This document shows positions 698 through 40,141 of a stretch of 40,141 nt of DNA, in pieces. The stretch's first letter is position 1. Each line of letters begins with the position of its first letter. Source of the DNA: a virus (lineage: Duplodnaviria > Heunggongvirae > Uroviricota > Caudoviricetes); the IMG/VR virus record IMGVR_UViG_2534682091_000016; one strand, written 5' to 3'. A program made the translations under genes and the position numbers. The notes beneath the pieces are model-generated. The model was given only the letters and a program-made list of their open reading frames with translations, made no database searches and was not told the DNA's origin.

Positions 698-1060
698 GGG
701 GCTGATTCTGGATTCGACGGGATTTGCGAAACCCAAGGTGCATGCCGAGGGGCGGTTGGCCTCGTAAAAAGCCGCAAAAAATAGTCGCAAACGACGAAAA
801 CTACGCTTTAGCAGCTTAATAACCTGCTTAGAGCCCTCTCTCCCTAGCCTCCGCTCTTAGGACGGGGATCAAGAGAGGTCAAACCCAAAAGAGATCGCGT
901 GGAAGCCCTGCCTGGGGTTGAAGCGTTAAAACTTAATCAGGCTAGTTTGTTAGTGGCGTGTCCGTCCGCAGCTGGCAAGCGAATGTAAAGACTGACTAAG
1001 CATGTAGTACCGAGGATGTAGGAATTTCGGACGCGGGTTCAACTCCCGCCAGCTCCACCA
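698..1060 (+). ncRNA. ssrA: tmRNA (transfer-messenger RNA, SsrA)
   Basis: Begins GGGGCTGATTCTGGATTCGACGGG and ends ...GGGTTCAACTCCCGCCAGCTCCACCA, matching the enterobacterial tmRNA as recalled, including the tag-coding stretch and tRNA-like 3' end with CCA. Confidence 0.93.
1016..1060. repeat. 45-bp att direct repeat, copy 1 (3' end of ssrA)
   Basis: ATGTAGGAATTTCGGACGCGGGTTCAACTCCCGCCAGCTCCACCA is repeated exactly at 35716..35760. Confidence 0.9.
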
Positions 1061-7644: not shown

Positions 7645-8817
7645 TTACGCGCTGACCTGGCTGGCGAAATTCACCAGGTACTGATCGGTGATGCGCTGGC
7701 GCAGCATCAGATTTTCAAGTGGCGGCATTGGCGTGTAGTCATAGTCGATGGTGAGTTTTCCGGCTTTCAGCGTGTCTTTGTCGTTCACCGACTCATCCAG
7801 CCAGCAATCACCACCAATGAGATACCCCTGACTGACCAGGCTGCGCATTTTGGCGCGGATACCTTCGATAATGTCGCGGGCCAGCGACGGGTTAAGCGGT
7901 TTATCCACCGCCCACATGTGTGCTTCTGCCATCGTGTCCATCAGCACCTGCGCCGTGCGGGTGTAGTTTTCGAAGGCAAAGAGCGGGTCATCACTCAGGC
8001 AGCGGGAACCCCAGAAGCGGAAACCGTCTTTACGCACAAGCGTGGTGACGTCGTTCTGGTTCAGCAGACCTGCATCGGTTGCCGGGTCCTGCAGATCCCA
8101 GAACACATCAGCAGAAATTCCGGTGACACCGTTCACGCCCACGTTGGACAGGCTTTTGTGCCATCCAGTCTGCTCATCAATTTTGGCGCGCAGACCGAGC
8201 GCACGAGCGGTGGCATATGCCGTTGCTTCGGCATTCAGCACCGTGTCCCAGCCAGTAAAGTCAGGCCAGATCAGCATCCCTTCGCGCTGGCTGAAGTTTT
8301 CGCGGTAAGTGATCGCCTCCTGCACTGTCTTGCAGCCATACGCTGACAGGTAAGCAAACCCACGCAGGCTTTGCGCCACGCTCAGCAACTCAGTAGCTAC
8401 CGCCTTGGTGTCGTGGCCTGGCACGCCGAGAATGCGCGGTTTAACGCCGAGCTGTGACTGGGCAGATAACAGGGCTTTCATACCTGTTTTTTTACCTTCA
8501 GCAGTCACTGCGCCGATGATATTGGTCGTGGTTTCTTCTTCCGTTTCACCCTGCGGCACACGCACAACAACGGTCACGGGTTTTGCCTGGTCAGCGATGG
8601 CATCCAGCGAGCGGGCCAGTGTGCCGGACTCACCCGCTTTACCGCTGGCAGTCAGCACATCAGTGATCAGCACGGGTTTATTAAGAGGAAACATTTTTGC
8701 ATCGGCATCATCGCCCGTGCAGACCATACCCACGATGGCGGTGCTCACCGTGGTAATAGATCGGGTGCCTTCGTTGACTTCAACAACGCGCACCCCGTGG
8801 TGGTAATCCTGAGCCAT
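7645..8817 (-). CDS. Contractile tail sheath protein FI
   Basis: 390 aa with P2 FI-like length and position ahead of FII. Confidence 0.88.
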
Positions 8818-8893
8818 AGTGGCGAACCTCCTGATTGGATTAGGCTTCGCCCTATGTTGAAGTGATTGTGCCTGACAAACAGCTAAGCGCAGT

Positions 8894-8911
8894 TGTACCG
8901 TTATTCATACA
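8894..8911 (-). promoter_or_regulatory. Putative Ogr-type activator site (TGT-N12-ACA) of the FI late promoter
   Basis: TGTACCGTTATTCATACA lies about 77-94 nt upstream of the FI start codon; P2 late promoters carry TGT-N12-ACA near -55. Confidence 0.5.
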
Positions 8912-8959
8912 AAATGACGGTATTTGTCTGCTTGCAGGGATAATCAACATAATGCTGAT

Positions 8960-9532
8960 TCAGGGGGATTCATTGCTCTTATTTGCCGGAAATTTTCTAT
9001 AAATTGTGGAAACACCTACATCAAAAATCAGTGCAATACGCTGTCTTGATTCTCCGGCCTCGAGTAAACGTCCAATCTGTGCCCACTGTTCGGTGGTCAA
9101 CTTAGGACGGCGTCCACCTACTCTGCCTTTGGCGCGAGCTGCAGCAAGCCCCGCCCTGGTACGTTCAACTATCAGTTCGCGCTCCATTTCAGCCAGGGCA
9201 CCCATGACATGAAAAAAGAAACGGCCCATTGGGGTACTGGTATCAATACTGTCAGTCAGGCTTCGGAAATTCACGCCACGCTGGCGCAGCTCTTCTATCA
9301 GCGTAACGAGATGCCGCATACTGCGCCCCAACCTGTCCAGCTTCCAGACAACCAGAGTGTCACCTGCCGATAATGTCCTGAGCAGTTTTTTCAGTCCCGG
9401 TCTGTCGGACTTAGTGCCACTGATTTTGTCCTCAAAAATCCGCTCACATCCCGCGCAGTTCAGCGCACTACGTTGCAAATCGGTGTTCTGGTCATTTGTT
9501 GACACGCGTACATAGCCAATAAGCATGATCAA
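8960..9532 (-). CDS. Serine DNA invertase (Gin/Hin/Pin/Cin family)
   Basis: N-terminus MLIGYVRVSTNDQNTDLQR...LVVWKLDRLGRS and C-terminal HTH align closely with Mu Gin as recalled; sits next to an invertible tail-fibre segment. Real start probably the third codon. Confidence 0.88.
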   Translation of the reverse strand: MIMLIGYVRVSTNDQNTDLQRSALNCAGCERIFEDKISGTKSDRPGLKKLLRTLSAGDTLVVWKLDRLGRSMRHLVTLIEELRQRGVNFRSLTDSIDTSTPMGRFFFHVMGALAEMERELIVERTRAGLAAARAKGRVGGRRPKLTTEQWAQIGRLLEAGESRQRIALIFDVGVSTIYRKFPANKSNESP

Positions 9533-9581
9533 TCCCCTGAATAAAAACCGGGGATGATGCCAGTTAGCCGTTATCTCTGCA

Positions 9582-9607
9582 TTTTCATAAACGTTGGTTT
9601 GGGAGAA
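9582..9607. repeat. Invertase crossover site 1 (gix/hix-like, 26 bp)
   Basis: TTTTCATAAACG-TT-GGTTTGGGAGAA: two imperfect 12-bp half-sites around a 2-bp core; 14 bp are an exact inverted repeat of 11148..11161. Confidence 0.75.
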
Positions 9608-10060
9608 GGCTCTGCATTACCCGTTGGTGTCCCTGTTCCATGGCCTTCCGCCACTCCGCCAACAGGCTGGCTGAAATGCAACGGCGCGGCTTTTTCTGCT
9701 GAAGAATACCCGGAACTGGCAAAGGCTTATCCGACAAATAAATTGCCTGATTTACGTGGTGAGTTTATTCGCGGCTGGGATGACGGGCGCGGGGTTGACT
9801 CTGGACGAGGTTTATTGACGGCGCAGGCGGAAACAAAGATAACTAACCACCACGGCAATGGCGGTAATGCTGATGATATTTCGGCTGGTGTTTCCGGTTC
9901 ACCTCCCAAAAACTTTGTCAGAAACGCGGATTCGGCAGTTAATGCTGGTTCTGGTTTTACCGCTTTTGGCTCTGGAAATTTGACAATGAATGGTGTTACT
10001 TCTTATTTCGGTGTCCGTCCACGCAACATCGCATTTAACTACATTGTGAGGGCTGCATAA
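9596..10060 (+). CDS. Alternative tail-fibre C-terminal cassette (silent in this orientation)
   Basis: Frame opens with the shared GLGE junction codons at site 1 and encodes a collar-type tail-fibre C-terminus (PVGVPVPW...GWLKCNGA...LPDLRGEFIRGWDDGRG); no own promoter or start expected. Confidence 0.65.
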   Translation, partial: GLGEGSALPVGVPVPWPSATPPTGWLKCNGAAFSAEEYPELAKAYPTNKLPDLRGEFIRGWDDGRGVDSGRGLLTAQAETKITNHHGNGGNADDISAGVSGSPPKNFVRNADSAVNAGSGFTAFGSGNLTMNGVTSYFGVRPRNIAFNYIVRAA

Positions 10061-10665
10061 TGGATAGCACTGTATTAAATAGCGAGTTTATTGCCACGAA
10101 GGCGGGGAATATTACTGTCTATAATTATGATGGTGAAACACGGGAATATATTTCCATATCGACTGAATATCTTGCCGTTGGTGTCGGCATTCCGGCATGT
10201 TCCTGTTTAGATGCTCCAGGCGCATACAAAGCTGGTTATGCAATCTGCCGTTCTGCAGATTTTAACTCATGGGAATATGTGCCAGACCATCGCGGTGAAA
10301 TTGTCTATGGCATCGAAACGGGGGAATCAAAAGAAATTACTGTGCCGGGGGATTACCCTGAAAATACGACCACTTTTGCCCCATTAACGCCATACGATAA
10401 ATGGGATGGTGAGAAATGGGTAACAGATACCGAGGCACAGCATAGCGCCGCAGTAGATGCAGCAGAAGTACAGCGCCAGTCTCTGATTGATGCTGCTATG
10501 GCTTCCATCAGTCTGATTCAGCTGAAATTACAGGCCGGGCGGAAACTGACGCAGGCAGAAACAACCCGGCTTAACGCTGTGCTGGATTACATTGACGCGG
10601 TGACGGCAACAGATACCAGCACCGCGCCTGATATTATTTGGCCTGTATTCCCTGAGACTGATTAA
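10060..10665 (+). CDS. Tail fibre assembly protein (Tfa/gpG/U family), alternative-orientation copy
   Basis: 201 aa, start overlaps the stop of the alternative fibre cassette (ATGA-type junction); size and character of phage tail-fibre assembly chaperones. Confidence 0.65.
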   Translation: MDSTVLNSEFIATKAGNITVYNYDGETREYISISTEYLAVGVGIPACSCLDAPGAYKAGYAICRSADFNSWEYVPDHRGEIVYGIETGESKEITVPGDYPENTTTFAPLTPYDKWDGEKWVTDTEAQHSAAVDAAEVQRQSLIDAAMASISLIQLKLQAGRKLTQAETTRLNAVLDYIDAVTATDTSTAPDIIWPVFPETD

Positions 10666-10855
10666 CCTCAATTAGTATTGGTTCGCCTTTCTCATTAATT
10701 GTTAGCTCCATGCCCTGAGGAATTTCTGTCATAGTAAAAAACCAGTTGTCCTCCGGTAATTCAATAGCCCCGGTCACGTCATGAAGACCGGGGATTACTT
10801 CAGTCAAAGTAACTGGATTAAACAGGCGCACAATAAACCCTCCAGGAAAAAGCAT
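10634..10855 (-). CDS. Short ORF after H (possible truncated tail fibre assembly protein for the current orientation)
   Basis: Only minus-strand reading frame available between the H stop and the convergent Tfa gene; under 75 aa and overlapping both neighbours. Confidence 0.25.
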   Translation of the reverse strand: MLFPGGFIVRLFNPVTLTEVIPGLHDVTGAIELPEDNWFFTMTEIPQGMELTINEKGEPILIEVNQSQGIQAK

Positions 10856-12209
10856 TTGATGATGGTCTGCCGTCGTACATCTGGCAGCGGGCATAAAAGC
10901 CGGTATTTGTTACCTGATCATCCACGATCATTGAAACGTGAACATTATTAGGTGTGCTCTCGTAATCCGTTCTTATTCTTTCCGCGATACTGATAAAACG
11001 TGAAAGTTTAGGCAGTGCAATTGGGTAAACAACTTTAGCCAGTCCATTATCATTAGATCCACCGGTTCCAAATACTTCTATTGCACCATCTGACCAGCGT
11101 ATCCATGCACCATTGGCATTAGCTCCTCGCTGAATGACATATCTGGCTTCTCCCAAACCAAGGTATGCGAGAAGACCAGCTACATCCTTTCCACTCAAAT
11201 TGGTAAGCGTATTGTCCAGCGGTTGTTTACCTGCCAGCGCATTAAGCATTGTCGTGGCAAAGTTCGGATCATTCCCCAGTGCCGCCGCCAGTTCGTTCAG
11301 TGTATCCAGTGCCGCAGGTGCAGAACCCACCATTGCTGCAATCGCTGATTTCACAAAAGCTGTAGTGGCAATCTGTGTATTGTTGACCGACTGTGCCGCA
11401 GTAGGTGCTGTTGGCGTTCCGGTGAGTGCCGGACTCGACAGCGGTGCTTTTAGTGCCAGCGCATTGTTAATGGTGGTACTGAATTTCGGGTCATTGTTAA
11501 TGGCTGCGGCAATTTCTTTCAGTGTGTCCAGCGTGGCTGGCGCACCGTTAATCAGAGCAGTAATAGCGGCCTGAACAAACTCAGTGGTCGCAATCCGCGT
11601 GGTGTTATTTCCTGCTGCAGGCGTCGGCGCTTTTGGTTCTCCGGTAAATGTCGGATTATGTTTCTGCGCATACTGGGTATGAGGATCTTGTGCGGCAATG
11701 TGGTTTCTCATCTGGTCATCCACATACAGCTTTAATTCCAGGACTTCATCATCCACGTATTTACGGGTTGCCAGCACTACAGCAGGGTCGATTTTCAGGG
11801 TGATATTGTCCGTACTGCTGGTAATCAGCACCATGCGCACGGTCTGGGTGCGCCCGCTGCCTTCAGCCAGTTGCGGCTTATAGCTTTCCGGGCAGTTGCC
11901 CACGGCAATCAATGCCCCGGACTCATCAAACAGGCCCACTTCACGTATCCACCAACCGCCCTCGTTTTCAGGGATCACCTGTTCAGCAATAATCTGGCTG
12001 CTGTTCTGCGGGTCGATATAAAGCATATTCAGCGCAGCCCGGCGTTTCTCATTTACCAGTGCCGTCTGCTTTGCGTCCGGAGTTGGCAATACTCCGCCGC
12101 CATCGCCCACCGCCATATGGGTAATTTTTAGCGGCACACCGAGCGCGGCGGCGCTGGCAAGTTTCGCCGCGCCAATATCCGTCAGCAGGGTATAAAATTT
12201 TGTGCTCAT
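10818..12209 (-). CDS. Tail fibre protein H (constant N-terminus plus currently expressed variable C-terminus)
   Basis: 463 aa with tandem Ala/Thr-rich fibre repeats (TTAFVKSAIAA, ATLDTLKE/NELAAA); crossover site 2 lies inside it at the LAYLGLGE codons. Confidence 0.85.
   Translation of the reverse strand: MSTKFYTLLTDIGAAKLASAAALGVPLKITHMAVGDGGGVLPTPDAKQTALVNEKRRAALNMLYIDPQNSSQIIAEQVIPENEGGWWIREVGLFDESGALIAVGNCPESYKPQLAEGSGRTQTVRMVLITSSTDNITLKIDPAVVLATRKYVDDEVLELKLYVDDQMRNHIAAQDPHTQYAQKHNPTFTGEPKAPTPAAGNNTTRIATTEFVQAAITALINGAPATLDTLKEIAAAINNDPKFSTTINNALALKAPLSSPALTGTPTAPTAAQSVNNTQIATTAFVKSAIAAMVGSAPAALDTLNELAAALGNDPNFATTMLNALAGKQPLDNTLTNLSGKDVAGLLAYLGLGEARYVIQRGANANGAWIRWSDGAIEVFGTGGSNDNGLAKVVYPIALPKLSRFISIAERIRTDYESTPNNVHVSMIVDDQVTNTGFYARCQMYDGRPSSNAFSWRVYCAPV
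11148..11173. repeat. Invertase crossover site 2 (gix/hix-like, 26 bp), inside H
   Basis: TTCTCCCAAACC-AA-GGTATGCGAGAA, in inverted orientation relative to site 1. Confidence 0.75.
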
Positions 12210-12811
12210 GGATTCACTCTCATTGTGTCAATAACATGGACCGCCCCGCCTTCATGCGCGGTGCCACCGGAAATAATCGTTTCGTTGATATACGGATAGA
12301 TCGTGATTTCTTCGCCAAGATAGCTGGCAACCCCCATCCAATGTGGGCCGCTGGTCTGCAGATTGATGGACATGCCGATCATGTGACGGCTACATGGTTT
12401 GGCATCACTTATCAGCCTCTCAAGTTCCAGATAGGTATCTTCAGTGATGCCCTGGTCCTGCACGCCGATATCCAGGCGAAACGTTCCCGGTGCTTCTCCG
12501 GTCTGCCACCATTCAATAATGCGGATCAGGAAGCCGAACGGCTCCACCACCCGCCGCACAGCACTGGTGGTTCCTTTATGCTGATGTATATAAAAAGCAT
12601 CCTTCACCACCTGGCGTTTGACGCTTTCTGTCCAGCTCTCGTCCCAGCGATCCACAGAGAACGCCCAGGCGAGATAAGGCAGGAAACTGACTGGACAGGT
12701 TGCCGGATTCCACAAGTCACGCAGCGGCACCTGCAAATCAGAAATCCCGCTGCACGCTTGCGCCAGTCGGCGCTCCAGTGGCGTTGAACCCGGTGGCAGC
12801 AGACTATTCAT
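12206..12811 (-). CDS. Baseplate protein gpI
   Basis: 201 aa, 4-nt overlap with H start, P2 gpI position. Confidence 0.8.
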   Translation of the reverse strand: MNSLLPPGSTPLERRLAQACSGISDLQVPLRDLWNPATCPVSFLPYLAWAFSVDRWDESWTESVKRQVVKDAFYIHQHKGTTSAVRRVVEPFGFLIRIIEWWQTGEAPGTFRLDIGVQDQGITEDTYLELERLISDAKPCSRHMIGMSINLQTSGPHWMGVASYLGEEITIYPYINETIISGGTAHEGGAVHVIDTMRVNP

Positions 12812-30850: not shown

Positions 30851-31360
30851 TCACAGCAAACCGAATGAAGCACCGAGGCCAGTCACGGTATCAACTGCAC
30901 TCGCCATCGCAGGATTAGCCTGTAAACGGGCCTGCAATGAAACAGCAGCCAGCGCCATCAGTCGTGTTACAGAGTTAATGCTGCTGATAGCATCACGACG
31001 ACCTGCACTGGTTTTTACATCGCCAGATACCGCACCTGCAGCAACACGCCCGATCTCTGCGGTTGCACTCATGACGTAATGTGGCAGTTTCTCTTTTGCC
31101 ACCTCATTAATCGGTACACATGGCAGACAATGAATCTGTGCCAGAAAACCATCTATCAGCGTTGAGTCTTCTGTCAGATCGGTAAGCAGCCAGATTTCTG
31201 GCGCATTGAGCTGATGCGGTTGATCTGGGTTGAGTTTGTTTCGCAGTGTCTGAACATTCATTCCTGCACGTTCTGCCAGCTTCGCCATATTGTGACGTAG
31301 TGCAAAAGCTCTACAGGCTTCATCAAAATACGGATGTTTGGAAATCTTGTAATCAAACAT
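30851..31360 (-). CDS. CII-like transcriptional activator (phage 186 CII family)
   Basis: 169 aa, the length of 186 CII, placed after the apl/cox-like gene on the lytic transcript; family assignment from recall and synteny. Confidence 0.6.
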   Translation of the reverse strand: MFDYKISKHPYFDEACRAFALRHNMAKLAERAGMNVQTLRNKLNPDQPHQLNAPEIWLLTDLTEDSTLIDGFLAQIHCLPCVPINEVAKEKLPHYVMSATAEIGRVAAGAVSGDVKTSAGRRDAISSINSVTRLMALAAVSLQARLQANPAMASAVDTVTGLGASFGLL

Positions 31361-31392
31361 GCTGCCCCCTTAGAAAGTTCCCATAATTGAAC

Positions 31393-31635
31393 TTACTTAC
31401 CAACAATGACGCGGAAGTTGGAATGTCCGAGGGATTCACGGACCTGATCAGTTTTGTACATCAGATAACGCAGACTTACGCGGCCTTTGTTTTTTTCTTT
31501 CTTGACCATGTACTTAGCAAGTTGACCATGGTGAATTTTTTGGTAAACAGAGCCGCGGGAAATGCCCTCCCACTCTGCGAACTCAGCAGGTGTTGCCATC
31601 TCTTTTGGTACACGAATTGAAATATCAGTACTCAT
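31393..31635 (-). CDS. Apl/Cox-like excisionase and repressor of the lysogenic promoter
   Basis: 80-aa basic protein, first gene of the lytic early operon, divergent from cI. Confidence 0.65.
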   Translation of the reverse strand: MSTDISIRVPKEMATPAEFAEWEGISRGSVYQKIHHGQLAKYMVKKEKNKGRVSLRYLMYKTDQVRESLGHSNFRVIVGK

Positions 31636-31756
31636 AGTGCAGTATCTCTTACTTTGTGTGCGTGTTAGTTCGTTTTAGCCCGTCTCTTAAACTCTCACAT
31701 CAAGAGACAAGAAAACATTACGATCTTGATTCAAGATTGTCAAATGGAGATTACCA
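31636..31756. promoter_or_regulatory. Lysis-lysogeny switch region (face-to-face early promoters and operators)
   Basis: 121-bp intergenic region between divergent apl-like and cI-like genes; contains the short palindrome TCTCTTGATGTGAGAG / TCTTGATTCAAGA. Confidence 0.5.
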
Positions 31757-32389
31757 ATGTTAAACATCAGAATGGGTTCCGATACGGGAGGTAAAGCAGC
31801 TATTGAGAGGCTGCTTGCGGCTTATGGATTCACAACTAAGCAGGCATTAAGTGAGCACCTGAATGTCTCAAAAAGCACTATGGCAAACAGAGTGTTACGT
31901 GACAGCTTTCCTGCTGACTGGATAATTCAGTGCGCACTAGAAACCGGTGTTTCGTTGCTTTGGTTAGCTACAGGACAGGGAAGCATGAAAGCAGGATCTG
32001 AGACTGAAAAAAGATCTCACAATGAGAACAAACAAGCAATTAAACCGTTATCTAAACTCATAACTCCATCTATTCCTAAAGGAACCTTGGAGAATGGACA
32101 ACTCAGTATTGATGAAGAGATTTTCCTAGACCACAGCATATTACCTGCAAATTATGAAGAATCGATGTTCTTAGAAACCCCTACTGATTGTTATCTCATC
32201 GATAAATCAGTTAAACAAGTCAGCAATGGATTCTGGCTTATCAATATTGATGGAATGATTATTATTGCAAAAATTATGCGGATTCCCGGCAATAAGATTG
32301 TAGTAAATCAAGATGAAGCGTCTTTCGAGTGCTCTGCTGATGATGTGGAAGTTATTGGGCGTGCAGTCAAAGTAATAAAGAGTATCTAA
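31757..32389 (+). CDS. Immunity repressor (186 CI-like)
   Basis: 210 aa with N-terminal HTH-like region; GGAG Shine-Dalgarno; followed 3 nt later by int, as in P2/186. Confidence 0.75.
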   Translation: MLNIRMGSDTGGKAAIERLLAAYGFTTKQALSEHLNVSKSTMANRVLRDSFPADWIIQCALETGVSLLWLATGQGSMKAGSETEKRSHNENKQAIKPLSKLITPSIPKGTLENGQLSIDEEIFLDHSILPANYEESMFLETPTDCYLIDKSVKQVSNGFWLINIDGMIIIAKIMRIPGNKIVVNQDEASFECSADDVEVIGRAVKVIKSI

Positions 32390-32391
32390 AC

Positions 32392-33408
32392 ATGACTGTC
32401 AGAAAACAGCCAAACGGCAAATGGTTGTGTGAGTGCTATCCCAATGGACGCAATGGCAAGCGCGTGCGTAAGCAATTTGCTACGAAAGGAGAAGCCATTG
32501 CTTTTGAAAGCTTCACAATGGAAGAAGTGAATAAAAAACCGTGGCTAGGTGAAAAGGATGATCGGCGACGCCTATCAGAATTAATTGAGCTTTGGTATTC
32601 CCTGTATGGCCAGACACTCGCAGACCCCAAGCGCCTCATGGCGAAACTTAGAATTATCTGTAATGGTCTAGGCGACCCCATCGCCTCAGAACTGACAGCC
32701 GGTGACTTTACAAAATACCGCGAAGCACGGTTAAAAGGCGACGTTCGTAACGAAGACGGCACACTAATGTCGCCAGTAAAACCACGCACGGTGAATCTTG
32801 AGCAACGTAACCTATCATCGGTTTTCGGCACATTGAAAAAACTAGGCCACTGGTCAGCACCAAATCCTCTCGCCGGGCTGCCAACATTTAAAATCGCTGA
32901 GGGGGAACTGGCGTTCCTGACCTCGGAAGAAATTAAACGTCTGCTAGATGCCTGCGCTGATTCTCAAAACCCCAGTCTGCTTTTGATTGCAAAAATATGC
33001 CTGGCCACCGGCGCACGCTGGAGTGAAGCCGAAAACCTGCAGGGCCATCAGTTATCTAAATACCGCATCACTTATACCAAGACGAAGGGCAAGAAAAACC
33101 GCACCGTGCCGATATCTCAAGATCTGTATGACGAACTCCCCAAGAACAGAGGGAAGCTATTCACCCCGTGCAGAAAAGCCTTTGAACGGGCAGTAAAGCG
33201 AGCTGGCATCGAGCTGCCAGAGGGCCAATGCACTCACGTGCTACGTCATACATTCGCCAGTCATTTTATGATGAATGGCGGAAACATACTGGTCCTACGC
33301 GATATTCTGGGCCATGCCGATATAAAAATGACGATGATTTACGCCCACTTTTCGCCGGATCATCTTGAAGATGCAGTTACTAAAAACCCTTTATGCAACT
33401 TAAGATAG
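32392..33408 (+). CDS. int: Tyrosine integrase (P2/186-type)
   Basis: 338 aa with catalytic signature HVLRHTFAS...GH...MIYAH near the C-terminus; reads toward the distal att repeat. Confidence 0.9.
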   Translation: MTVRKQPNGKWLCECYPNGRNGKRVRKQFATKGEAIAFESFTMEEVNKKPWLGEKDDRRRLSELIELWYSLYGQTLADPKRLMAKLRIICNGLGDPIASELTAGDFTKYREARLKGDVRNEDGTLMSPVKPRTVNLEQRNLSSVFGTLKKLGHWSAPNPLAGLPTFKIAEGELAFLTSEEIKRLLDACADSQNPSLLLIAKICLATGARWSEAENLQGHQLSKYRITYTKTKGKKNRTVPISQDLYDELPKNRGKLFTPCRKAFERAVKRAGIELPEGQCTHVLRHTFASHFMMNGGNILVLRDILGHADIKMTMIYAHFSPDHLEDAVTKNPLCNLR

Positions 33409-33786
33409 AGTAACTTATGAAAATAAACTCAAATTATTTACAAATATAATATTCAGCAGGTTATCCATTCTTATTTAACTCTTCAGACTGAGATTAGATT
33501 TTATTTATAGAATAAGATAATTTCATATCACAAAAAACCTGTAAGCCCTCATCTTTGTTGTATAAAAACATAAAAGACGCCATATTCAAAAAAGTCGAAA
33601 AGCATTGCAATGCAACATTAAAAATAAGCCAATAAAAACCAGTCATTAGAAAATGAAAAAAAACAAAAACATTTTTTATCAAAGCTTCAGTCTGACTACT
33701 AGTTTGACTCTGCAATTAACTATCAAGATGATCAATATTTATTGATCATCTTGAAGTTGCCCTCAGGAAAGATGAGTATAATATTT

Positions 33787-35523
33787 CTACTCAAGAAGAT
33801 ATTCTAACTCATCTTTTATCGGGATAACTTGCTCATAAAGTCGGTGATATGACTTCCCAATTGCGCCTCTGAATTGTATTAACTTTGGTGGCTTGTTACC
33901 TATATTAATAATATGGTCTTGAGCTATACCTGGGTAGGGATCAATAAATACAATTTCAGATATACCTAACTGATAAGCTTTTTTCGCACACAGCTCACAG
34001 GGACTGGCAGTTGTATATAACCTCCCCCCCTGAACGCCAATGCCACCATATTTTGCAAGTTGTAAAAATGCGTTTTCCTCAGCATGTAATGCACGTGTAT
34101 GAACTTGATTACCTTTTTTATCTTTATCAAGATCATTATGTATATCTTTAAAACAATAAGATAAGTTCCTGCCTCTATAAATATCACCAGTTTTATCTAT
34201 CGCCCTAAAATTTAATAGTTTCTCATTAGCTTTAATTCTGAAAGAACTATTATTTCTCTCATAATAACTGTACACTTTTTCATCAAAGTCGTTCATTAGG
34301 CCATCTAGCGATCTCATAGAGCAAGGAATCTGACCGTTGGCGACATCATTCCAACCCACTGATTTTATTGAATTTTCACCATCAGTTACTACAGCTCCCA
34401 CCTGTCTAGATATACAACCAGAGTTTAATTTTACCGTATACGCAACTTGCATAACCCTTTCCATTGCAGTAGGTGTTATCAGACCAGGATGCTTCATCAG
34501 TGCGATGTACCACGCTAATTGTGCTTTTAAAATATTGTCATTATCAAATTCATTTTTTGGGTTAAAAATGTGTATATCTGATAGTTCAATGCATTTAGTT
34601 ACATTTGGATTAGTGAGATGTTTGTAAGAGTTATCACCTTTACCTGACTCTACAGAATCTATTTCCTCTATCTGCTTTTCAGAAAACTTATGTAGTTTCC
34701 GCAAATAGTTTGTTCGATGTTCATCTGGGGCATTTATTGACATTAAATGAAATGCAGAATATCTATCCTTAAAAAATTTTGCTTCATATGGATTTCTAAT
34801 AGCATCTATGACAATTAATGCGTTATCTCTTTTGCTTTTTCTTATTAATTTAATAACCCTATTAATAGTTTCCGGCAAATGAAAAACAGATTTAGGTATA
34901 AACTCTTTATCTTCAAAATCGACTTCAATACGCCCACGGCGTCTAATTGACTTACCTGCTAACTGATAGACTGAAACATATAAATTTGAGTTTATCGCAT
35001 TTAGTTCAGCTTTGAATTCCTTAGTAAATTTTCTAACTAACCTCAAAATTGATATAAATTTATTAATCGTTTTTTCATTAAGCTTCAATTCACTATTATG
35101 ATCAAGCAAATTCTCAATTACATTTTTAAATCTTGTTAAAATGAGATTATCTGAAAATACACCAAAAGTTAATACATTATCTAAATGCTCTTTACTGATA
35201 GATTTATTAGATGATAGAATAAACTCAGAAGCTTCTTCAACTGTTAACATCAAAAGATACGCTGAGATTAGGTCACTCACCTTAATTGAGTAAAAATTTT
35301 CCCAGTGATTTTCTGCGAATTTTTTAACTATATTATAACGATGGACATCCAATCCCTTGTAAAAACCCTGTAATTTACTTACATCAGGGAAGACTGTTTT
35401 TTCGTTTTCAAGAATATTAGCTGTTGTTGTGCAACCAGAACCAGTTCGACCTGTCAAACCGACTAAAATAAACTGCCCATTTTCAAGGAAAAGCTCACTA
35501 ACGAATTTTTTTTCTTTCATCAC
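33787..35523 (-). CDS. Kinase-like P-loop domain fused to CMP/dCMP-type deaminase domain (candidate defensive dCTP deaminase)
   Basis: 578 aa; N-terminal P-loop GLTGRTGSGCTT; C-terminal zinc-deaminase motifs HAEENA and SPCELCAKK; strongly AT-rich compared with the flanking prophage genes. Confidence 0.7.
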   Translation of the reverse strand: MMKEKKFVSELFLENGQFILVGLTGRTGSGCTTTANILENEKTVFPDVSKLQGFYKGLDVHRYNIVKKFAENHWENFYSIKVSDLISAYLLMLTVEEASEFILSSNKSISKEHLDNVLTFGVFSDNLILTRFKNVIENLLDHNSELKLNEKTINKFISILRLVRKFTKEFKAELNAINSNLYVSVYQLAGKSIRRRGRIEVDFEDKEFIPKSVFHLPETINRVIKLIRKSKRDNALIVIDAIRNPYEAKFFKDRYSAFHLMSINAPDEHRTNYLRKLHKFSEKQIEEIDSVESGKGDNSYKHLTNPNVTKCIELSDIHIFNPKNEFDNDNILKAQLAWYIALMKHPGLITPTAMERVMQVAYTVKLNSGCISRQVGAVVTDGENSIKSVGWNDVANGQIPCSMRSLDGLMNDFDEKVYSYYERNNSSFRIKANEKLLNFRAIDKTGDIYRGRNLSYCFKDIHNDLDKDKKGNQVHTRALHAEENAFLQLAKYGGIGVQGGRLYTTASPCELCAKKAYQLGISEIVFIDPYPGIAQDHIINIGNKPPKLIQFRGAIGKSYHRLYEQVIPIKDELEYLLE

Positions 35524-35715
35524 GTCCCACTTATGAATGTAAGAATATTCAACATATTAATTATAATTTATTAACTCATTTTGTTCTAGATACTTGATGT
35601 AATGGCGGCACTTTGGCGACGGAGCATTAAAAACGCGTAAGACGAGCAAATACAACAAAACACTAACACATTGTTTTTAAATATAAATAGCTGTTTTTAC
35701 TATACTAAAAATGGT

Positions 35716-35760
35716 ATGTAGGAATTTCGGACGCGGGTTCAACTCCCGCCAGCTCCACCA
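35716..35760. repeat. 45-bp att direct repeat, copy 2 (junction between the two elements)
   Basis: Exact copy of ssrA 1016..1060; the P4-type integrase gene starts about 165 nt downstream. Confidence 0.9.
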
Positions 35761-35925
35761 CTTTTTAGTTGTTTGAAGTTCAATGAAGTCTACTAAGCCC
35801 ACACAGCACAAGCTCTGCGGGCTTTTTTACGTCTATTGTCGTCCAGTGAGAATTGCTGAGAACTACGAGTTATGGCACCCTGAATGGGACCCACTAAGAA
35901 GGGTCCAAAAACCGAGGGTCCCAAA

Positions 35926-37155
35926 ATGGCAAAAATCGCTAAGAAGCTCACTGACACTGAAATCAAAAGCACCAAGCCAGCCGATAAAGAAATCAACTTG
36001 TTTGACGGTGATGGTCTGATTCTACGAATCGCTCCTTTGGCGAAAGGAGGCAAGAAAAATTGGTATTTCAGGTATGCAGTACCAGTGAGCAAGAAAAGAA
36101 CCAAAATGAGCCTTGGGACATATCCTCACCTTACCCTTGCAAGAGCCAGAGCCTTACGTGATGAATATCTCTCCTTTCTGGCAAATGGTGTTGATCCCCA
36201 AATCCATAACAACGATAAGGCGAAGGCATTAAAGAGTGCTACTGAGCACACTCTCCAAGCCGTAGCGCGGAAATGGTTAGATGAGAAGGTAAAGACATCA
36301 GGTATCTCACAAGACCATGCAGCAGACATCTGGCGCAGCTTAGAGAGAAATGTCTTTCCCGGTCTGGGTAATGTCCCTATCAATGAGATCCGACCTAAGC
36401 TCTTAAAACAACACCTTGATCCTATTGAGCAACGAGGCGTATTGGAAACTCTACGCCGTATCATTTCACGTCTGAATGAAATCTTCCGGTGGGCAGCTAC
36501 TGAAGAACTTATTGAGTTCAACCCGGCTGACAACCTTGGTCAAAGATTCAGTAAACCAAAAAAGCAAAATATGCCTGCCCTTCCCCCAAGCGAATTGCCA
36601 AGGTTTATGGAATCTTTGACGAATGCGTCAATCCGGTTGGAAACACGTATGCTAATTGAATGGCAATTGTTGACATGGGTTCGTCCGGGTGAAGCCGTTC
36701 GCGCAAGGTGGTCTGATATTGATACAACCAACAGCATTTGGAACATTCCTGCTGATTTCATGAAAATGAAAAAGCTTCACAAAGTTCCTTTGAGTAAAGA
36801 AGCTTTGCGCATCCTTGAATTAATGAAATCAATAAGTGGGCATAGAGAATGGGTTTTCCCCAGCATAAAAGCGCCTCTTAATCATATGCATGAACAAACA
36901 GCCAACGCAGCTATCATCCGAATGGGGTTCGGAGGCGAGCTTGTAGCTCACGGTATGCGTTCTATTGCACGAACAGCGGCAGAGGAGTCTGGTAAATTCA
37001 GAGCTGAAGTTCTTGAGGCAGCGCTTGCCCACTCGAAAAAAGATGAAATTATCGCAGCATACAATCGTGCAGAATATCTGATAGAGCGACAGAGTTTGAT
37101 GCAATGGTGGAGTGATTACGTTCAAGCTCAAAGATCAAATGCTCTGGTAGCCTAA
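35926..37155 (+). CDS. P4-type tyrosine integrase (CP4-57 IntA-like)
   Basis: N-terminus MAKIAKKLTDTEIKSTKPADKE...DGDGL is the typical P4-family arm-binding start; HGMRS and C-terminal Tyr region present; GAGGG Shine-Dalgarno. Longest ORF starts at 35884. Confidence 0.85.
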   Translation: MAKIAKKLTDTEIKSTKPADKEINLFDGDGLILRIAPLAKGGKKNWYFRYAVPVSKKRTKMSLGTYPHLTLARARALRDEYLSFLANGVDPQIHNNDKAKALKSATEHTLQAVARKWLDEKVKTSGISQDHAADIWRSLERNVFPGLGNVPINEIRPKLLKQHLDPIEQRGVLETLRRIISRLNEIFRWAATEELIEFNPADNLGQRFSKPKKQNMPALPPSELPRFMESLTNASIRLETRMLIEWQLLTWVRPGEAVRARWSDIDTTNSIWNIPADFMKMKKLHKVPLSKEALRILELMKSISGHREWVFPSIKAPLNHMHEQTANAAIIRMGFGGELVAHGMRSIARTAAEESGKFRAEVLEAALAHSKKDEIIAAYNRAEYLIERQSLMQWWSDYVQAQRSNALVA

Positions 37156-37193
37156 GTATCAGAATAGCTAATATAATCCTGAAGGTAAAGAAA

Positions 37194-37610
37194 ATGGAAA
37201 CCCTATTCAAAGTTTTTGAAAAATTTAGTTCCAGACCACTTTTTTTTATTTTTTTCGGACTCTCACTTTGTGAATTTTTTCAGAAACAATCTGTTCTGAT
37301 GAATCCATCAGCAGATAACATCGCGAAATTATTCGCAGCCATGATATTAGTTGTTTTTTTTACTTGGGGATTTGAATGGCTAATCTTCAAGTTCAATGTA
37401 AACCTTGAACCTCATGATCAAGGCGATATTGGACCAACAATTGGAACGGCTACTTTAGCTGTATACTTAGTTTATGCCTTTCACTTTCTCAGTGAAAATC
37501 CTGAAGCATTAAATTTAAAGTTATTAACTAACTCTGGCTTTATATACAGCACAACTCTATTATTATTCTCATTAGAATGCATGAAGCTTAGAAGACTTAA
37601 ACAAAAATAA
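37194..37610 (+). CDS. Hypothetical integral membrane protein (about 4 TM helices)
   Basis: 138 aa with four hydrophobic stretches; AT-rich; between the P4-type int and the two-component-like module. Confidence 0.5.
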   Translation: METLFKVFEKFSSRPLFFIFFGLSLCEFFQKQSVLMNPSADNIAKLFAAMILVVFFTWGFEWLIFKFNVNLEPHDQGDIGPTIGTATLAVYLVYAFHFLSENPEALNLKLLTNSGFIYSTTLLLFSLECMKLRRLKQK

Positions 37611-37682
37611 ACAACATCATTGTGATGATAAATATAAAATAGGCATGGCGAAAAAAAAATCACCACGCCTAAAATATAATAA

Positions 37683-39449
37683 TTATGGTAGCATCATTGA
37701 TACATAATCCACACCAATCCTTGAGCTATACTGAGACGCTATAGCCTGATATCTTTCTGCATAACCAGTTCTCAGTTGAGATTTAAGTTTGAGTCGGACA
37801 GGAACATTTTGCACGTTGCCATCCATATTACTTAAAAACACGGCAGAAATAATATTTTTTTCTTCGCCATCAACTGTTGTTCCATGATTCAACACCACCA
37901 TATAATCAACAACAGGAAGCGTTTTATCCCCTTCGAAAATAGAGAGATATTTTCTTTGATTTTTATGCATTACATATATATATTTCGAATGTTCAGCAAA
38001 TGGCAATGCTTTACTCTGACTGGCGTTAAAAAGCTCCAGAACTTTAATGAGCCTGTGCGGACTTAATCTTACATGGTGAGGGTCGTTACCCTGAGTAGGA
38101 ACCAAATCACATGCCGCAGATACACATAAATACCATTTGTTCGACTCTGTATCAAAGAAAATAGTGCCAGTAGAAATATGACCATCTTCAAAATTCTTTG
38201 AAGACAAATTCATATTTAAAGCATGATACATTTCGTGATAAGTATCATTATTTGATGGCAGATCCATTTTTGAAGAGCAATATTGGAGCAATGCAGCAAC
38301 TCCGCTGTTAGCGTATTCATTTGAATAGCTATCAAAAACACTTTTGATAAATTCATCCAGCGTATTATTATTTTTAAGTCTTTGATAAAGCTCTTCTGAT
38401 AAATTACCAAATACAAAGTCAATATTTCTACATCTAATATCAGGCGAGTCTGATTTTAATATCTCATTTAACCACGCAGCTTGACCGTAATGATCGTTAG
38501 CCAAATGATTTACAAAAGATAAAGCCTCAGCTTCGATTGCATTCTGAATTTCAGATTTTATTAACTGATAATAAGATGGTTTCCATTCAATGAGAGAATC
38601 ATTGAGAGTTTGCCAAATCCTATCTCCATCGTTTTCATGATCATCTTGAACCTTATGAAATAGGGAGACAAAGATATTACCACATTGAATCCATTTTACT
38701 CCGCTTTCATCACCCCGAATGACATTGCCAGATGTGTTGCTAGAAATAATTGCATTTCTAGACACAGCATATTCTGCAATCATTTTTGCAATGAAGTTTT
38801 TATCCTTTTGATCCTCCAACACAGCATCATCATGTATTAATCTTTTAATTCTTCTACAAGGCTTACTGTCTTTAATATAGGCTATTGTTTCATCTCTTGT
38901 GAGAGCTTTATTACCATTATCATTTAAGTTCGGTAATACAACGTCTTCCCAATAACTTTGGACATCTTCATTATCGTAGTCAATGATCAAGCTGTTGATA
39001 TCCAGAGCACCTTTGAGAGTCGATGATATCTGCATCCAAACCGTTTCTAAATTCTCTCTAGTATATATTACAATCATATTTAAATGATCGGAGTCTTTCA
39101 AATCTTGTAATAGTTTAAGTGTTTTATCAGGTGCATTATTATCAAGATGATAATCTACAATAATAAGATCTGATTTTCTAATCCGATCCACATCGAAATT
39201 AACAGAACCATTGTCAACATCACAAATCATATTTTTAGATTGAAAAAAGCTCTCAAGAGTAGCGGCTCGTTTAGATGAGTCAATTTTGTTGTAGTCTAAA
39301 TCAACTTCGTTATTCAACGCCCTGATTGATTCAGAATACGTCAGAAAATCGTCATCAATCATGACAACGGAACGAATTGCATTTTCGCAGAAAGTTTTCT
39401 GGACAAGAGAATTATAATTTGCCACTGTCATATTAGAACTCCACTCCAT
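37683..39449 (-). CDS. Receiver (REC)-like domain protein with large uncharacterised C-terminal domain
   Basis: 588 aa; N-terminus has receiver hallmarks in order (VVMIDDD, LIIVDYHL, IVIYTRE, downstream Lys); remaining 450 aa unrecognised; start overlaps the upstream ATPase gene by 17 nt. Confidence 0.6.
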   Translation of the reverse strand: MEWSSNMTVANYNSLVQKTFCENAIRSVVMIDDDFLTYSESIRALNNEVDLDYNKIDSSKRAATLESFFQSKNMICDVDNGSVNFDVDRIRKSDLIIVDYHLDNNAPDKTLKLLQDLKDSDHLNMIVIYTRENLETVWMQISSTLKGALDINSLIIDYDNEDVQSYWEDVVLPNLNDNGNKALTRDETIAYIKDSKPCRRIKRLIHDDAVLEDQKDKNFIAKMIAEYAVSRNAIISSNTSGNVIRGDESGVKWIQCGNIFVSLFHKVQDDHENDGDRIWQTLNDSLIEWKPSYYQLIKSEIQNAIEAEALSFVNHLANDHYGQAAWLNEILKSDSPDIRCRNIDFVFGNLSEELYQRLKNNNTLDEFIKSVFDSYSNEYANSGVAALLQYCSSKMDLPSNNDTYHEMYHALNMNLSSKNFEDGHISTGTIFFDTESNKWYLCVSAACDLVPTQGNDPHHVRLSPHRLIKVLELFNASQSKALPFAEHSKYIYVMHKNQRKYLSIFEGDKTLPVVDYMVVLNHGTTVDGEEKNIISAVFLSNMDGNVQNVPVRLKLKSQLRTGYAERYQAIASQYSSRIGVDYVSMMLP

Positions 39450-39818
39450 TGAACTGGATCACAAAATTAGCGCCATCTTTTATTAAATAGTTATCGCCTT
39501 CATCAGGTTCTGAATACCATATTTTATGATGTGCAACAGCAAGGTTTTCTCGACATAGATACAGACCTACCCCATGTCCATTTGCTCTTTTGCTATAAAA
39601 TAGTTCAAATAGTCGCGGGATATCATCGGTATCAATTGCCGGACCAGAATTTGCTATGATAACCAAAGAATTCACAAAACCAATCTTTATGAGCCTATTA
39701 TTTGACAGACTGACCCAATACATTGCATTGTTGATAATATTAGTAAAAACAGGATAGATCCTTGATGGTATATCTGTTATTGCGATTTGCTTAAACTCTT
39801 CACTAAATTCAATAGTTA
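39433..39818 (-). pseudogene. Histidine-kinase-type ATPase (HATPase_c) gene, 5'-truncated by IS3 insertion
   Basis: N-box (VFTNIINNAMYW), G1 (ANSGPAID) and G2 (GHGVGLYL) boxes present; frame is open to the IS3 boundary with no start codon in native sequence; the apparent start of the track ORF lies inside the IS3 terminal repeat. Confidence 0.6.
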
Positions 39819-40141
39819 TGATCTTACCCAGCAATAGTGGACACGCGGCTAAGTGAGTAAACTCTCAGTCAGAGGTGACTCACATGACAAAAACAGTATC
39901 AACCAGTAAAAAACCCCGTAAACAGCATTCGCCTGAATTTCGCAGTGAAGCCCTGAAGCTTGCTGAACGCATCGGTGTTACTGCCGCAGCCCGTGAACTC
40001 AGCCTGTATGAATCACAGCTCTACAACTGGCGCAGTAAACAGCAAAATCAGCAGACGTCTTCTGAACGTGAACTGGAGATGTCTACCGAGATTGCACGTC
40101 TCAAACGCCAGCTGGCAGAACGGGATGAAGAGCTGGCTATC
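39819..40141 (+). mobile_element. IS3 insertion sequence, left end (partial)
   Basis: Terminal sequence TGATCTTACCCAGCAATAGTGGACACGCGG... followed 65 nt later by the orfA start, matching IS3 as recalled. Confidence 0.8.
39884..40141 (+). CDS. insA: IS3 transposase OrfA (partial, continues past window end)
   Basis: Translation MTKTVSTSKKPRKQHSPEFRSEALKLAERIGVTAAARELSLYESQLYNWRSKQQ... matches IS3 OrfA as recalled. Confidence 0.85.
   Translation, partial: MTKTVSTSKKPRKQHSPEFRSEALKLAERIGVTAAARELSLYESQLYNWRSKQQNQQTSSERELEMSTEIARLKRQLAERDEELAI

Follow-up and report, generated by a model that had tools for sequence, protein, structure and literature searches.

The ssrA island and the interrupted kinase-like gene

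The window, by which we mean the whole 40,141-nucleotide stretch of DNA analyzed here (viral record IMGVR_UViG_2534682091_000016), carries the tmRNA gene at positions 698-1060. The 3' end of ssrA is repeated over 45 bp on the plus strand at 35716-35760, in a sequence identical to window positions 1016-1060; this repeat serves as the att site between a P2-like prophage and an island. The island encodes a P4-type tyrosine integrase (35884-37155, plus strand; Arm-DNA-bind_3, Phage_int_M, and Phage_integrase domains), the gene for which also is present in Salmonella islands, and a hypothetical ORF of 138 aa (37194-37610, plus strand) that matches phrog_6556. This ORF occupies the same position in the related loci L009 to L013, L014, and L016, and it travels with the island in both E. 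coli and Salmonella.

A first-pass annotation, made from the sequence alone, described a two-component-like module on the minus strand at the right end of the window. One member of the pair is an intact receiver-like gene of 582 aa (37683-39431, minus strand), which starts 1 nt downstream of the stop codon of the kinase-like gene and encodes an N-terminal Response_reg_2 domain (PF19192; REC fold). Fold searches with the C-terminal domain, which lies in the remaining region of approximately 350 aa, gave a weak similarity to CcdB/MazF-like folds. In this region H403 is nearly invariant and both C436 and C441 are invariant. A caspase/CHAT-like protease was suspected from these three residues, but no protease match was returned by the fold searches.

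The other member, the kinase-like gene, is represented by its native 3' fragment (39433-39818, minus strand; HATPase_c, E = 3e-12), which ends with the stop codon at 39435-39433. The allele of E. coli E2863 (locus L001), which encodes 572 aa, was used as the uninterrupted reference. In this allele the native fragment spans part of codon 445 and all of codons 446-572, which equals residues ~861-988 of a full-length protein of 988 aa. It contains the complete HATPase_c (CA) domain, including the N-box, and this is the only one of the kinase domains that the window retains. The region matches L001 6001-6518 and 561 complete E. coli genomes at 100% identity. In the uninterrupted allele, an HEF_HK domain (PF19191; residues 356-414, 26.1 bits against a cut-off of 24.1), with the DHp/H-box, precedes the HATPase_c domain (residues 462-553). 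The H-box SHELEE (His366) and the CA domain are predicted kinase features, and there is a sequence match to the Thermotoga kinase 3a0r across DHp and CA (E = 1e-6).

Identity to the uninterrupted allele is perfect to position 39819 and nil beyond, confirming that an IS3 copy interrupts the gene. The window holds 323 of the 1258 bp of this element (39819-40141, plus strand), beginning with its left inverted repeat, TGATCTTACCCAGCAATAGTGG..., the first base of which is 39819. The native side of the junction reads ...CAATAGTTA and is followed directly by TGATCTTACCCAGCAATAGTGGACACGCGG... of IS3. The terminal repeat had been recognized correctly but placed at 39818, one base too early; base 39819 (T) is common to IS3 and the uninterrupted allele. 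The orfA gene of the element starts with the ATG at 39884, matches HTH_Tnp_1, and continues past the end of the window. The break falls after residue 445 of the 572-aa protein, cutting the DHp part from the ATP-binding part as had been proposed.

The minus-strand ORF that remains open (39433-39834, 133 aa) matches HATPase_c (E = 3e-12) and is native only to 39818. Its apparent start, a TTG at 39832-39834 on the minus strand, is IS3 derived, lying 14-16 bases inside the element, as first noted. No Shine-Dalgarno-like sequence was seen upstream of this TTG, the minus strand there reading ...CTTAGCCGCGTGTCCACTA-TTG, and the frame is closed upstream by a TGA (39867-39865), also within IS3. The remark that the native part has no start codon before the N-box likewise was borne out, since the first native in-frame start, the ATG at 39723, is the M of the N-box NNAMYW itself.

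The far side of the IS3 copy

The first-pass annotation proposed looking beyond IS3 for the missing 5' portion of the gene and for a target-site duplication. A search of the 5426 complete RefSeq E. coli genomes gave no match to the native-IS3 junction of the window, and relatives were therefore reached via exact-protein look-ups. On the assumption of a simple insertion that had duplicated 3 bp, the 5' fragment was predicted beforehand to encode residues 1-445 followed by MILPT, a tail that results from read-through of the TAA duplication into the right end of IS3. An exact match to this chimera was present in the public collection (P0150; 38 contigs, 74 index blocks). It was found only through the predicted sequence, the 5' fragments having been merged into the 572-aa cluster in the first homologue search.

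Two long contigs, L016 and L017, span the whole structure, which rests on these two GenBank assemblies and many short contigs. The IS3 copies in both are 1258 bp long, in keeping with the earlier estimate of about 1.26 kb; they carry HTH_Tnp_1 and rve ORFs (orfA/orfB) and end in imperfect inverted repeats, 5'-TG ... CA-3', with the right inverted repeat (IRR) finishing in ...CCATATTACGTGGGTAGGATCA. The 323 IS3 bases of the window are 100% identical to both complete copies of L016 and of L017, and within each locus the two copies are identical across all 1258 bp. Matching copies in RefSeq are labeled 'IS3-like element IS3 family transposase', and identical copies there carry a 'programmed frameshift' remark. 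The target-site duplication is 3 bp long, TTA on the plus strand (left copy at 39816-39818) and TAA on the gene strand. In L016, TAA flanks the new IS3 on both sides, the gene strand reading ...CGAATAA before the element and TAACTATT... after it. The insertion, its duplication, and the position of the 5' fragment thus are directly observed.

The order in L016, a 4.92-Mb contig, is ygaQ'-IS3-5' fragment-IS3(inverted)-3' fragment-receiver gene. L017, which is 100% identical to window positions 31198-40141 (8944 bp), contains these parts too, but its IS3-fragment-IS3 unit is inverted; in this 2013-era draft, that arrangement could stem from how identical repeats were placed during assembly. Since the two IS3 copies form inverted repeats, the 1.46-kb 5' fragment can flip between them. 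The proposed separation of the 5' part by IS3 holds, but it is not the whole of the matter, as in L017 the fragment also is inverted between two copies. In its TG...CA ends, its length of 1258 bp, its orfA/orfB, its 3-bp duplication, and its coding-sequence target, the event resembles other gene disruptions by IS3, a member of the IS3 group of the IS3 family, which moves by copy-out/paste-in. The sole twist here is the identical, inverted second copy 1.46 kb away, with an invertible gene fragment between the copies of which both orientations were observed.

The E. coli stub and the complete operon

The full-length protein of 988 aa combines HATPase_c_3, HEF_HK, and HATPase_c domains. In Salmonella (L009 to L013) its gene, a paraMORC-kinase gene, lies between those for a C5 DNA methylase and the 582-aa receiver, and this complete three-gene operon occurs in Salmonella, Klebsiella, and Serratia. 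The 572-aa E. coli allele corresponds, as annotated, to residues 417-988, and it is 5' truncated in every E. coli copy examined. Homology to the Salmonella operon ends at L001 7973 (L009 11128), 1127 nt from the start of the gene; no E. coli copy examined has the first 376 codons or the methylase gene, the latter being missing from the window and, in E. coli, from L001, L014, L016, and L017. In 484 of the 561 carrier genomes, an IS3 lies exactly at the deletion junction without a target duplication, its flanks being gcg and aga. This older deletion is observed directly, and it contradicts the notion that an intact sensor kinase was present prior to the insertion, because the E. coli alleles examined already were truncated stubs from which the methylase had gone. 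The 572-aa 'ATP-binding protein' that is widespread in E. coli is an IS3-bounded deletion stub and not a distinct short architecture. Forms of 572 aa at ~83% identity are annotated in other genera, and homologues of that length occur in Pectobacterium, Klebsiella, Yersinia, and Morganella (P0052, P0059, P0068, P0070); for the Pectobacterium homologue of this length (P0052), nothing on genomic context is on record.

The description of the module as a kinase-receiver pair stands, but the pair falls outside the classical two-component systems and belongs to the restriction-modification (R-M)-associated Response_reg_2/HEF_HK type (PMC8011034), with which it shares its PF19192 receiver, its PF19191 and HATPase_c kinase, and its adjacent, co-oriented genes. 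No N-terminal sensor or transmembrane input domain was found, the N terminus of the full-length protein being a second GHKL ATPase (HATPase_c_3), and the HEF_HK family is reported to be soluble, without transmembrane segments (PMC8011034). Bellieny-Rabelo et al. (2021, Genome Biol Evol; PMC8011034) found the pair next to a C5 DNA methylase in many genomes, and the Salmonella relatives likewise have it after such a gene. The E. coli copies examined lack both the methylase and the N-terminal HATPase_c_3 of the predominant 'group 1' architecture, which the 988-aa Salmonella protein has, and in the window the HEF_HK part is severed by IS3 as well. The same authors described HEF_HK plus HATPase_c without an N-terminal domain as recurrent ('group 2'; 34 of 222 sequences); the 572-aa E. 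coli form has this domain make-up but is the product of an IS3-bounded deletion.

We also compared the locus with the paraMORC GHKL ATPases of R-M operons (Iyer, Abhiman and Aravind 2008; PMC2292703). Like these, the 988-aa protein has an N-terminal HATPase_c_3 domain of the MORC type and is encoded beside a cytosine methylase on a mobile island. Unlike them, it adds a histidine-kinase-like DHp and CA module, and its partner is a receiver-domain protein instead of a helicase or recognizable nuclease. The window keeps only the CA fragment and the receiver gene of such a system. PADLOC-DB v2 has no model for the kinase-like or the receiver-like protein, both of which gave chance-level matches only (E of at least 0.0025), and the methylase alone matched the generic MTase_II/DruM models; in NCBIfam there was no informative match for either member of the pair. 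Detocs is reported to be a defensive two-component system (Rousset et al. 2023), in which a kinase-receiver relay controls a toxic effector. The likeness to Detocs lies in the idea of such a relay, with a toxic effector, on a mobile element; the domain make-up of the present pair differs, and no relationship in sequence was seen, PADLOC having given no match.

Probable decay of the locus and alternative readings

The kinase-receiver pair is kept in about 10% of complete E. coli genomes. Separate insertions in the stub or receiver gene were observed in E. coli for IS1, ISKpn26, IS600, and, in the receiver gene, IS3. A frameshifted 278-aa form of the stub occurs in about 590 index blocks, and receiver-gene truncations also are among the disruptions. 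Many independent IS insertions, frameshifts, and truncations are the pattern expected of relaxed constraint. Synonymous and nonsynonymous differences between Salmonella and E. coli (3 versus 5 in the stub and 7 versus 3 in the receiver gene) are too few to judge selection.

We favor a stepwise account, to which we assign a probability of about 0.88: an older deletion, and then a second IS3 that split the leftover stub. In this account the much earlier deletion, marked by the older IS3, took the methylase gene and the first 376 codons (the MORC-like GHKL ATPase) together with the remainder of the mobile island, and it fused the stub to a truncated ygaQ. IS3 (1258 bp) then transposed into the kinase-like gene of this ssrA-integrated island remnant, making the 3-bp TTA duplication and splitting the E. 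coli allele after its codon 445. The ATP-binding domain stayed with the 3' piece (39433-39818), which has no start codon of its own, and the 5' piece, with a coiled-coil region and the DHp/H-box, lies just past the element, between the new IS3 and the older, identical, inverted one. We infer a loss of function, with the neighboring IS3 as the source of the new copy. In this sequence of events, the IS3 of the window is a second hit on a locus that very probably was nonfunctional by then, and it adds to the many disruptions that this stub has suffered independently in E. coli; the suggestion that IS3 inactivated the module is right in that the gene is split, but the stub very probably had ceased to function already. 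The locus is an ordinary, textbook-type case of stepwise island-remnant decay by IS elements.

The strongest alternative, although an unlikely one, is the first-pass view that the 572-aa stub and the receiver formed a working phosphorelay until IS3 inactivated it. The predicted H-box (SHELEE, His366) and the whole of the CA domain persist in the stub, and the receiver gene, itself intact, is nearly identical in sequence to its Salmonella counterpart, so that residual phosphotransfer before the arrival of IS3 is conceivable; the retention of the pair in about a tenth of complete E. coli genomes and the recurrence in other taxa of an architecture without the N-terminal GHKL domain (PMC8011034) point the same way. 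Against this, the stub starts inside the original frame at the deletion junction, the methylase gene of the Salmonella operon is gone, and both genes have been disrupted independently across E. coli. A slightly less probable reading is that the leftover, methylase-less stub and the receiver, with its C-terminal domain weakly similar to the CcdB/MazF toxins, may be active and mildly self-harmful in E. coli, in which case the disruptions would reflect selection to silence a toxic effector module and not neutral decay.

The first-pass annotation suggested that IS3 might drive the receiver gene. It is very unlikely that transcription of this gene and of the 3' fragment now starts from an outward promoter of IS3. 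IS3-family elements can switch on adjacent genes, and the right inverted repeat of IS3/IS911 bears an outward-facing -35 element. The end on the receiver side, however, is the left inverted repeat (IRL), not IRR, and orfA/orfB point away from the receiver gene. A consensus scan of 39300-40141 and of the same stretch of L016 found no minus-strand promoter-like site, which is weak negative evidence, and scans of IRL toward the receiver gene and of IRR toward the stub gave nothing above chance. We infer that there is no IS-driven expression of the receiver gene.

Still less credible is an IS3-mediated deletion that cost the lineage the 5' part of the kinase gene and left IS3 next to unrelated DNA. 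The older IS3 at the 5' edge of the stub did arise in this manner, and strain 442/2 has an IS3 in the receiver gene with unrelated DNA beyond it. The chimeric 5' protein expected from a simple insertion nevertheless exists publicly in exact form, and both L016 and L017 have the 5' fragment directly past IS3 with the TAA duplication. L017 matches the window without a difference over 8944 bp, and the deletion is refuted for the sequenced relatives. A reading of the 133-aa ORF as a real, independent ATPase gene that has its own start codon, as its GenBank label 'sensor histidine kinase' in several assemblies (e.g., EHZ5417405.1) would imply, can be dismissed, since its start codon and upstream stop both are IS3 sequence, the TTG lacks a Shine-Dalgarno-like sequence, and every homologue extends upstream, to 572 or 988 aa; homologue searches returned no form of about 130 aa with a native start codon at an IS-free locus, the short forms all being fragments of the same E. 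coli gene.

For annotation, the value of the stepwise account is that it identifies as IS3 the start codon of a 133-aa ORF that is deposited as a 'sensor histidine kinase'. Studies of Response_reg_2/HEF_HK pairs, and screens of them as candidate defense systems, should use the complete three-gene operon of Salmonella, Klebsiella, and Serratia in place of the E. coli copies. If the disruptions do reflect the silencing of a toxic effector module, the intact methylase-paraMORC-kinase-receiver operon would be a candidate for an uncharacterized, phosphorelay-controlled defense system.

The IS3 junction and the 133-aa ORF

The last ORF of the window (133 aa; 39433-39834, minus strand) matches HATPase_c with an E value of 3e-12. 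The first-pass annotation took this ORF to be the end of a kinase gene truncated at 39818 by IS3, with an apparent TTG start contributed by the IS and no native start before the N-box. Comparison with the uninterrupted allele of E. coli E2863 (L001) gave a perfect alignment to 39819 and unrelated sequence thereafter. From 39819 on, the window is the left end of IS3, 100% identical to the complete 1258-bp copies in two long contigs that span the split gene (L016 and L017), and the proposed boundary is therefore right within one base. RefSeq genomes annotate copies matching this end as IS3. In the final 700 bases of the window, ...TTCACTAAATTCAATAGTTA runs up to the junction and TGATCTTACCCAGCAATAGTGGACACGCGGCTAAGTGAG... 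follows it, ending in CATGACAAAAACAG; the IS3 portion inside the window is 323 bp. Codon-by-codon reading placed both the TTG start (39834-39832) and the upstream in-frame TGA that closes the frame (39867-39865) past 39818, on the IS3 side. Within the native sequence, no ATG, GTG or TTG occurs in frame until 39723, where an ATG encodes the M of the N-box NNAMYW; this bears out the annotation on the start codon as well. GenBank names the 133-aa ORF "sensor histidine kinase" (e.g., EHZ5417405.1 and HAV8018783.1), its start codon being IS3 sequence.

The interrupted gene and its 5' part

The uninterrupted E. coli gene encodes 572 aa, is annotated "ATP-binding protein," and is present in 561 of 5,426 complete genomes. 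Its product carries HEF_HK (PF19191) at residues 356-414 and HATPase_c at 462-553, and the 582-aa gene downstream (37683-39431, minus strand) matches Response_reg_2 (PF19192). Bellieny-Rabelo et al. (2021; PMC8011034) defined the two domains together, as a cytoplasmic two-component-like pair tied to restriction-modification genes and to ATPases of the paraMORC type. Neither the kinase-like nor the receiver-like protein is covered by a PADLOC model. The gene struck by IS3 belongs to a domain family that has been published but is experimentally uncharacterized. The break follows residue 445 and lies in the linker that joins the DHp/H-box (SHELEE, His366) to the CA domain, so that the IS copy separates the DHp part from the CA part, as had been proposed.

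The window's IS3 junction was absent from the complete RefSeq E. coli genomes (0 of 5,426). The far side was predicted by assuming a simple IS3 insertion with the usual 3-bp duplication into the commonest E. coli allele. On the gene strand this reads ...CGA ATA A/TG ATC CTA CCC ACG TAA (slash, junction), i.e., residues 1 to 445 followed by MILPT and a stop. An exact copy of the predicted 450-aa protein exists in the public protein collection (P0150), where it is listed on 38 contigs and in 74 index blocks; its sources include E. coli Jurua 18/11 and 180600. The corresponding 133-aa 3' fragment was found on 21 contigs. L016, from a 4.92-Mb contig, has the order truncated ygaQ, IS3, 5' fragment, inverted IS3, 3' fragment, and receiver gene, with its second IS bordered on both sides by TAA. 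L017 equals window positions 31198-40141 at 100% identity and has the same four junction sequences, with the IS3-fragment-IS3 unit flipped relative to its flanks, so that the 5' fragment is directed away from the 3' fragment and the receiver gene. In these assemblies, extension past the IS thus recovered the 5' part of the kinase gene and the target duplication that the first-pass annotation had proposed looking for there. Nothing sets this insertion apart from other IS3 insertions, and every IS3 feature that was checked is present.

The 1457-bp 5' fragment, past the window end, lies between two inverted IS3 copies (8622-12594 in both L016 and L017) that are identical within each contig across all 1258 bp. 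Its orientation relative to the genes on either side differs between the two assemblies; the segment may be invertible or its assembly ambiguous. Recombination between the inverted identical repeats would account for the two orientations; that of L017, the older draft, may be an assembly choice.

An older deletion and further disruptions

A homologue search returned proteins of 988 to 994 aa in Salmonella, Klebsiella, and Serratia, which carry HATPase_c_3 at the N terminus and match the E. coli 572-aa protein at 99% identity over their residues 417-988. The Salmonella operon comprises a C5 DNA methylase (395 to 402 aa), the 988-aa gene, and the receiver gene (582 aa); it adjoins a P4-type integrase and a 138-aa ORF that the window also has, with a relaxase and additional recombinases farther along the island. 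DNA homology between E. coli and Salmonella ends 1,127 nt into the 988-aa gene (L001 7973, Salmonella locus L009 11128), past which E. coli carries a 5'-truncated ygaQ. An older IS3 lies exactly at this junction in 484 of the 561 carrier genomes (e.g., L014 6341-7598). Its right end abuts the E. coli allele, and its flanks, gcg and aga, show no target duplication, the signature of an IS-mediated deletion. The junction was without IS3 in E2863 and L024, the two carriers examined among those outside the 484; at the E2863 scar (L001 7973-7976), IS3 and 7 bp of ygaQ have been lost and 3 unmatched bases (cgc) are present. The end of homology and the older IS3 indicate that the methylase, the MORC-like ATPase domain, and the remaining island were gone before the window's IS3 inserted. 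The E. coli short form is a deletion product; its domain makeup is the same as the "group 2" architecture of Bellieny-Rabelo et al. (2021). Unlike the full Response_reg_2/HEF_HK system, the window and the examined E. coli loci lack both the N-terminal HATPase_c_3 and the adjacent methylase. Of the proposal that IS3 inactivated a two-component-like module, the split is real, but what was split was already a remnant and not a classical two-component system.

This stub is also broken elsewhere: by IS1 in L008 (1598-1621; L001 6406), by IS1, ISKpn26, and IS600 in three complete genomes (CP074769, CP069692, and CP074963), and, with no IS, by a frameshift or nonsense change that reduces the ORF to 278 aa, a very common E. 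coli variant (about 590 index blocks; P0123; L024 and L025 2918-4837). Other stub fragments range from 128 to 309 aa. In E. coli 442/2 (CP076282; L026 7022-8709), a second inverted IS3 cuts short the receiver gene instead of the stub, and a receiver form truncated to 453 aa is common. These independent breaks across strains are consistent with a leftover under relaxed constraint; less probably, a harmful leftover is being selected against. GenBank names the 278-aa ORF "HAMP domain-containing histidine kinase"; its precomputed Pfam matches are HEF_HK and HATPase_c only. In 442/2, the IS3 is followed by unrelated DNA including a cytosine methyltransferase and a type II restriction endonuclease.

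The receiver gene and its surroundings

The receiver gene is intact in the window, differing by 1 or 2 residues from the L014 and Salmonella copies. The first-pass annotation had suggested that the IS might now drive it. However, the IS end toward the gene is the left inverted repeat, the transposase genes point away, and a promoter scan found no promoter-like site directed at it, which leaves IS-driven expression unsupported. The only start of the 3' fragment is the IS-derived TTG, without a ribosome-binding site upstream. As predicted from the sequence, the likelier effect on the receiver gene would be polar silencing. Across 40 homologues, receiver residues 228-582 (37683-38750, minus strand) contain invariant W247, N252, K260, C436, C441, Q552, R554, R571, and D575, with H403 and D442 nearly invariant. 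This region matched no known family, and its sole structural resemblance, a weak one, is to the CcdB/MazF/Kid toxin fold.

A P2-like prophage (about 1184-33408) lies in tandem with the module-bearing island, between identical 45-bp copies of the ssrA 3' end (1016-1060 and 35716-35760). The interval from the phage integrase to the second repeat contains a 578-aa gene (33787-35523, minus strand) with a dCMP/cytidine deaminase domain; identical regions in other genomes are annotated "anti-phage dCTP deaminase." The 138-aa ORF (37194-37610, plus strand), which lies between integrase and receiver gene in all island copies seen in E. coli and Salmonella, matches phrog_6556, a family whose function is not known.

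The useful by-products of the analysis are corrections to annotation and the indication that, for any testing, the complete three-gene operon is the form to use.
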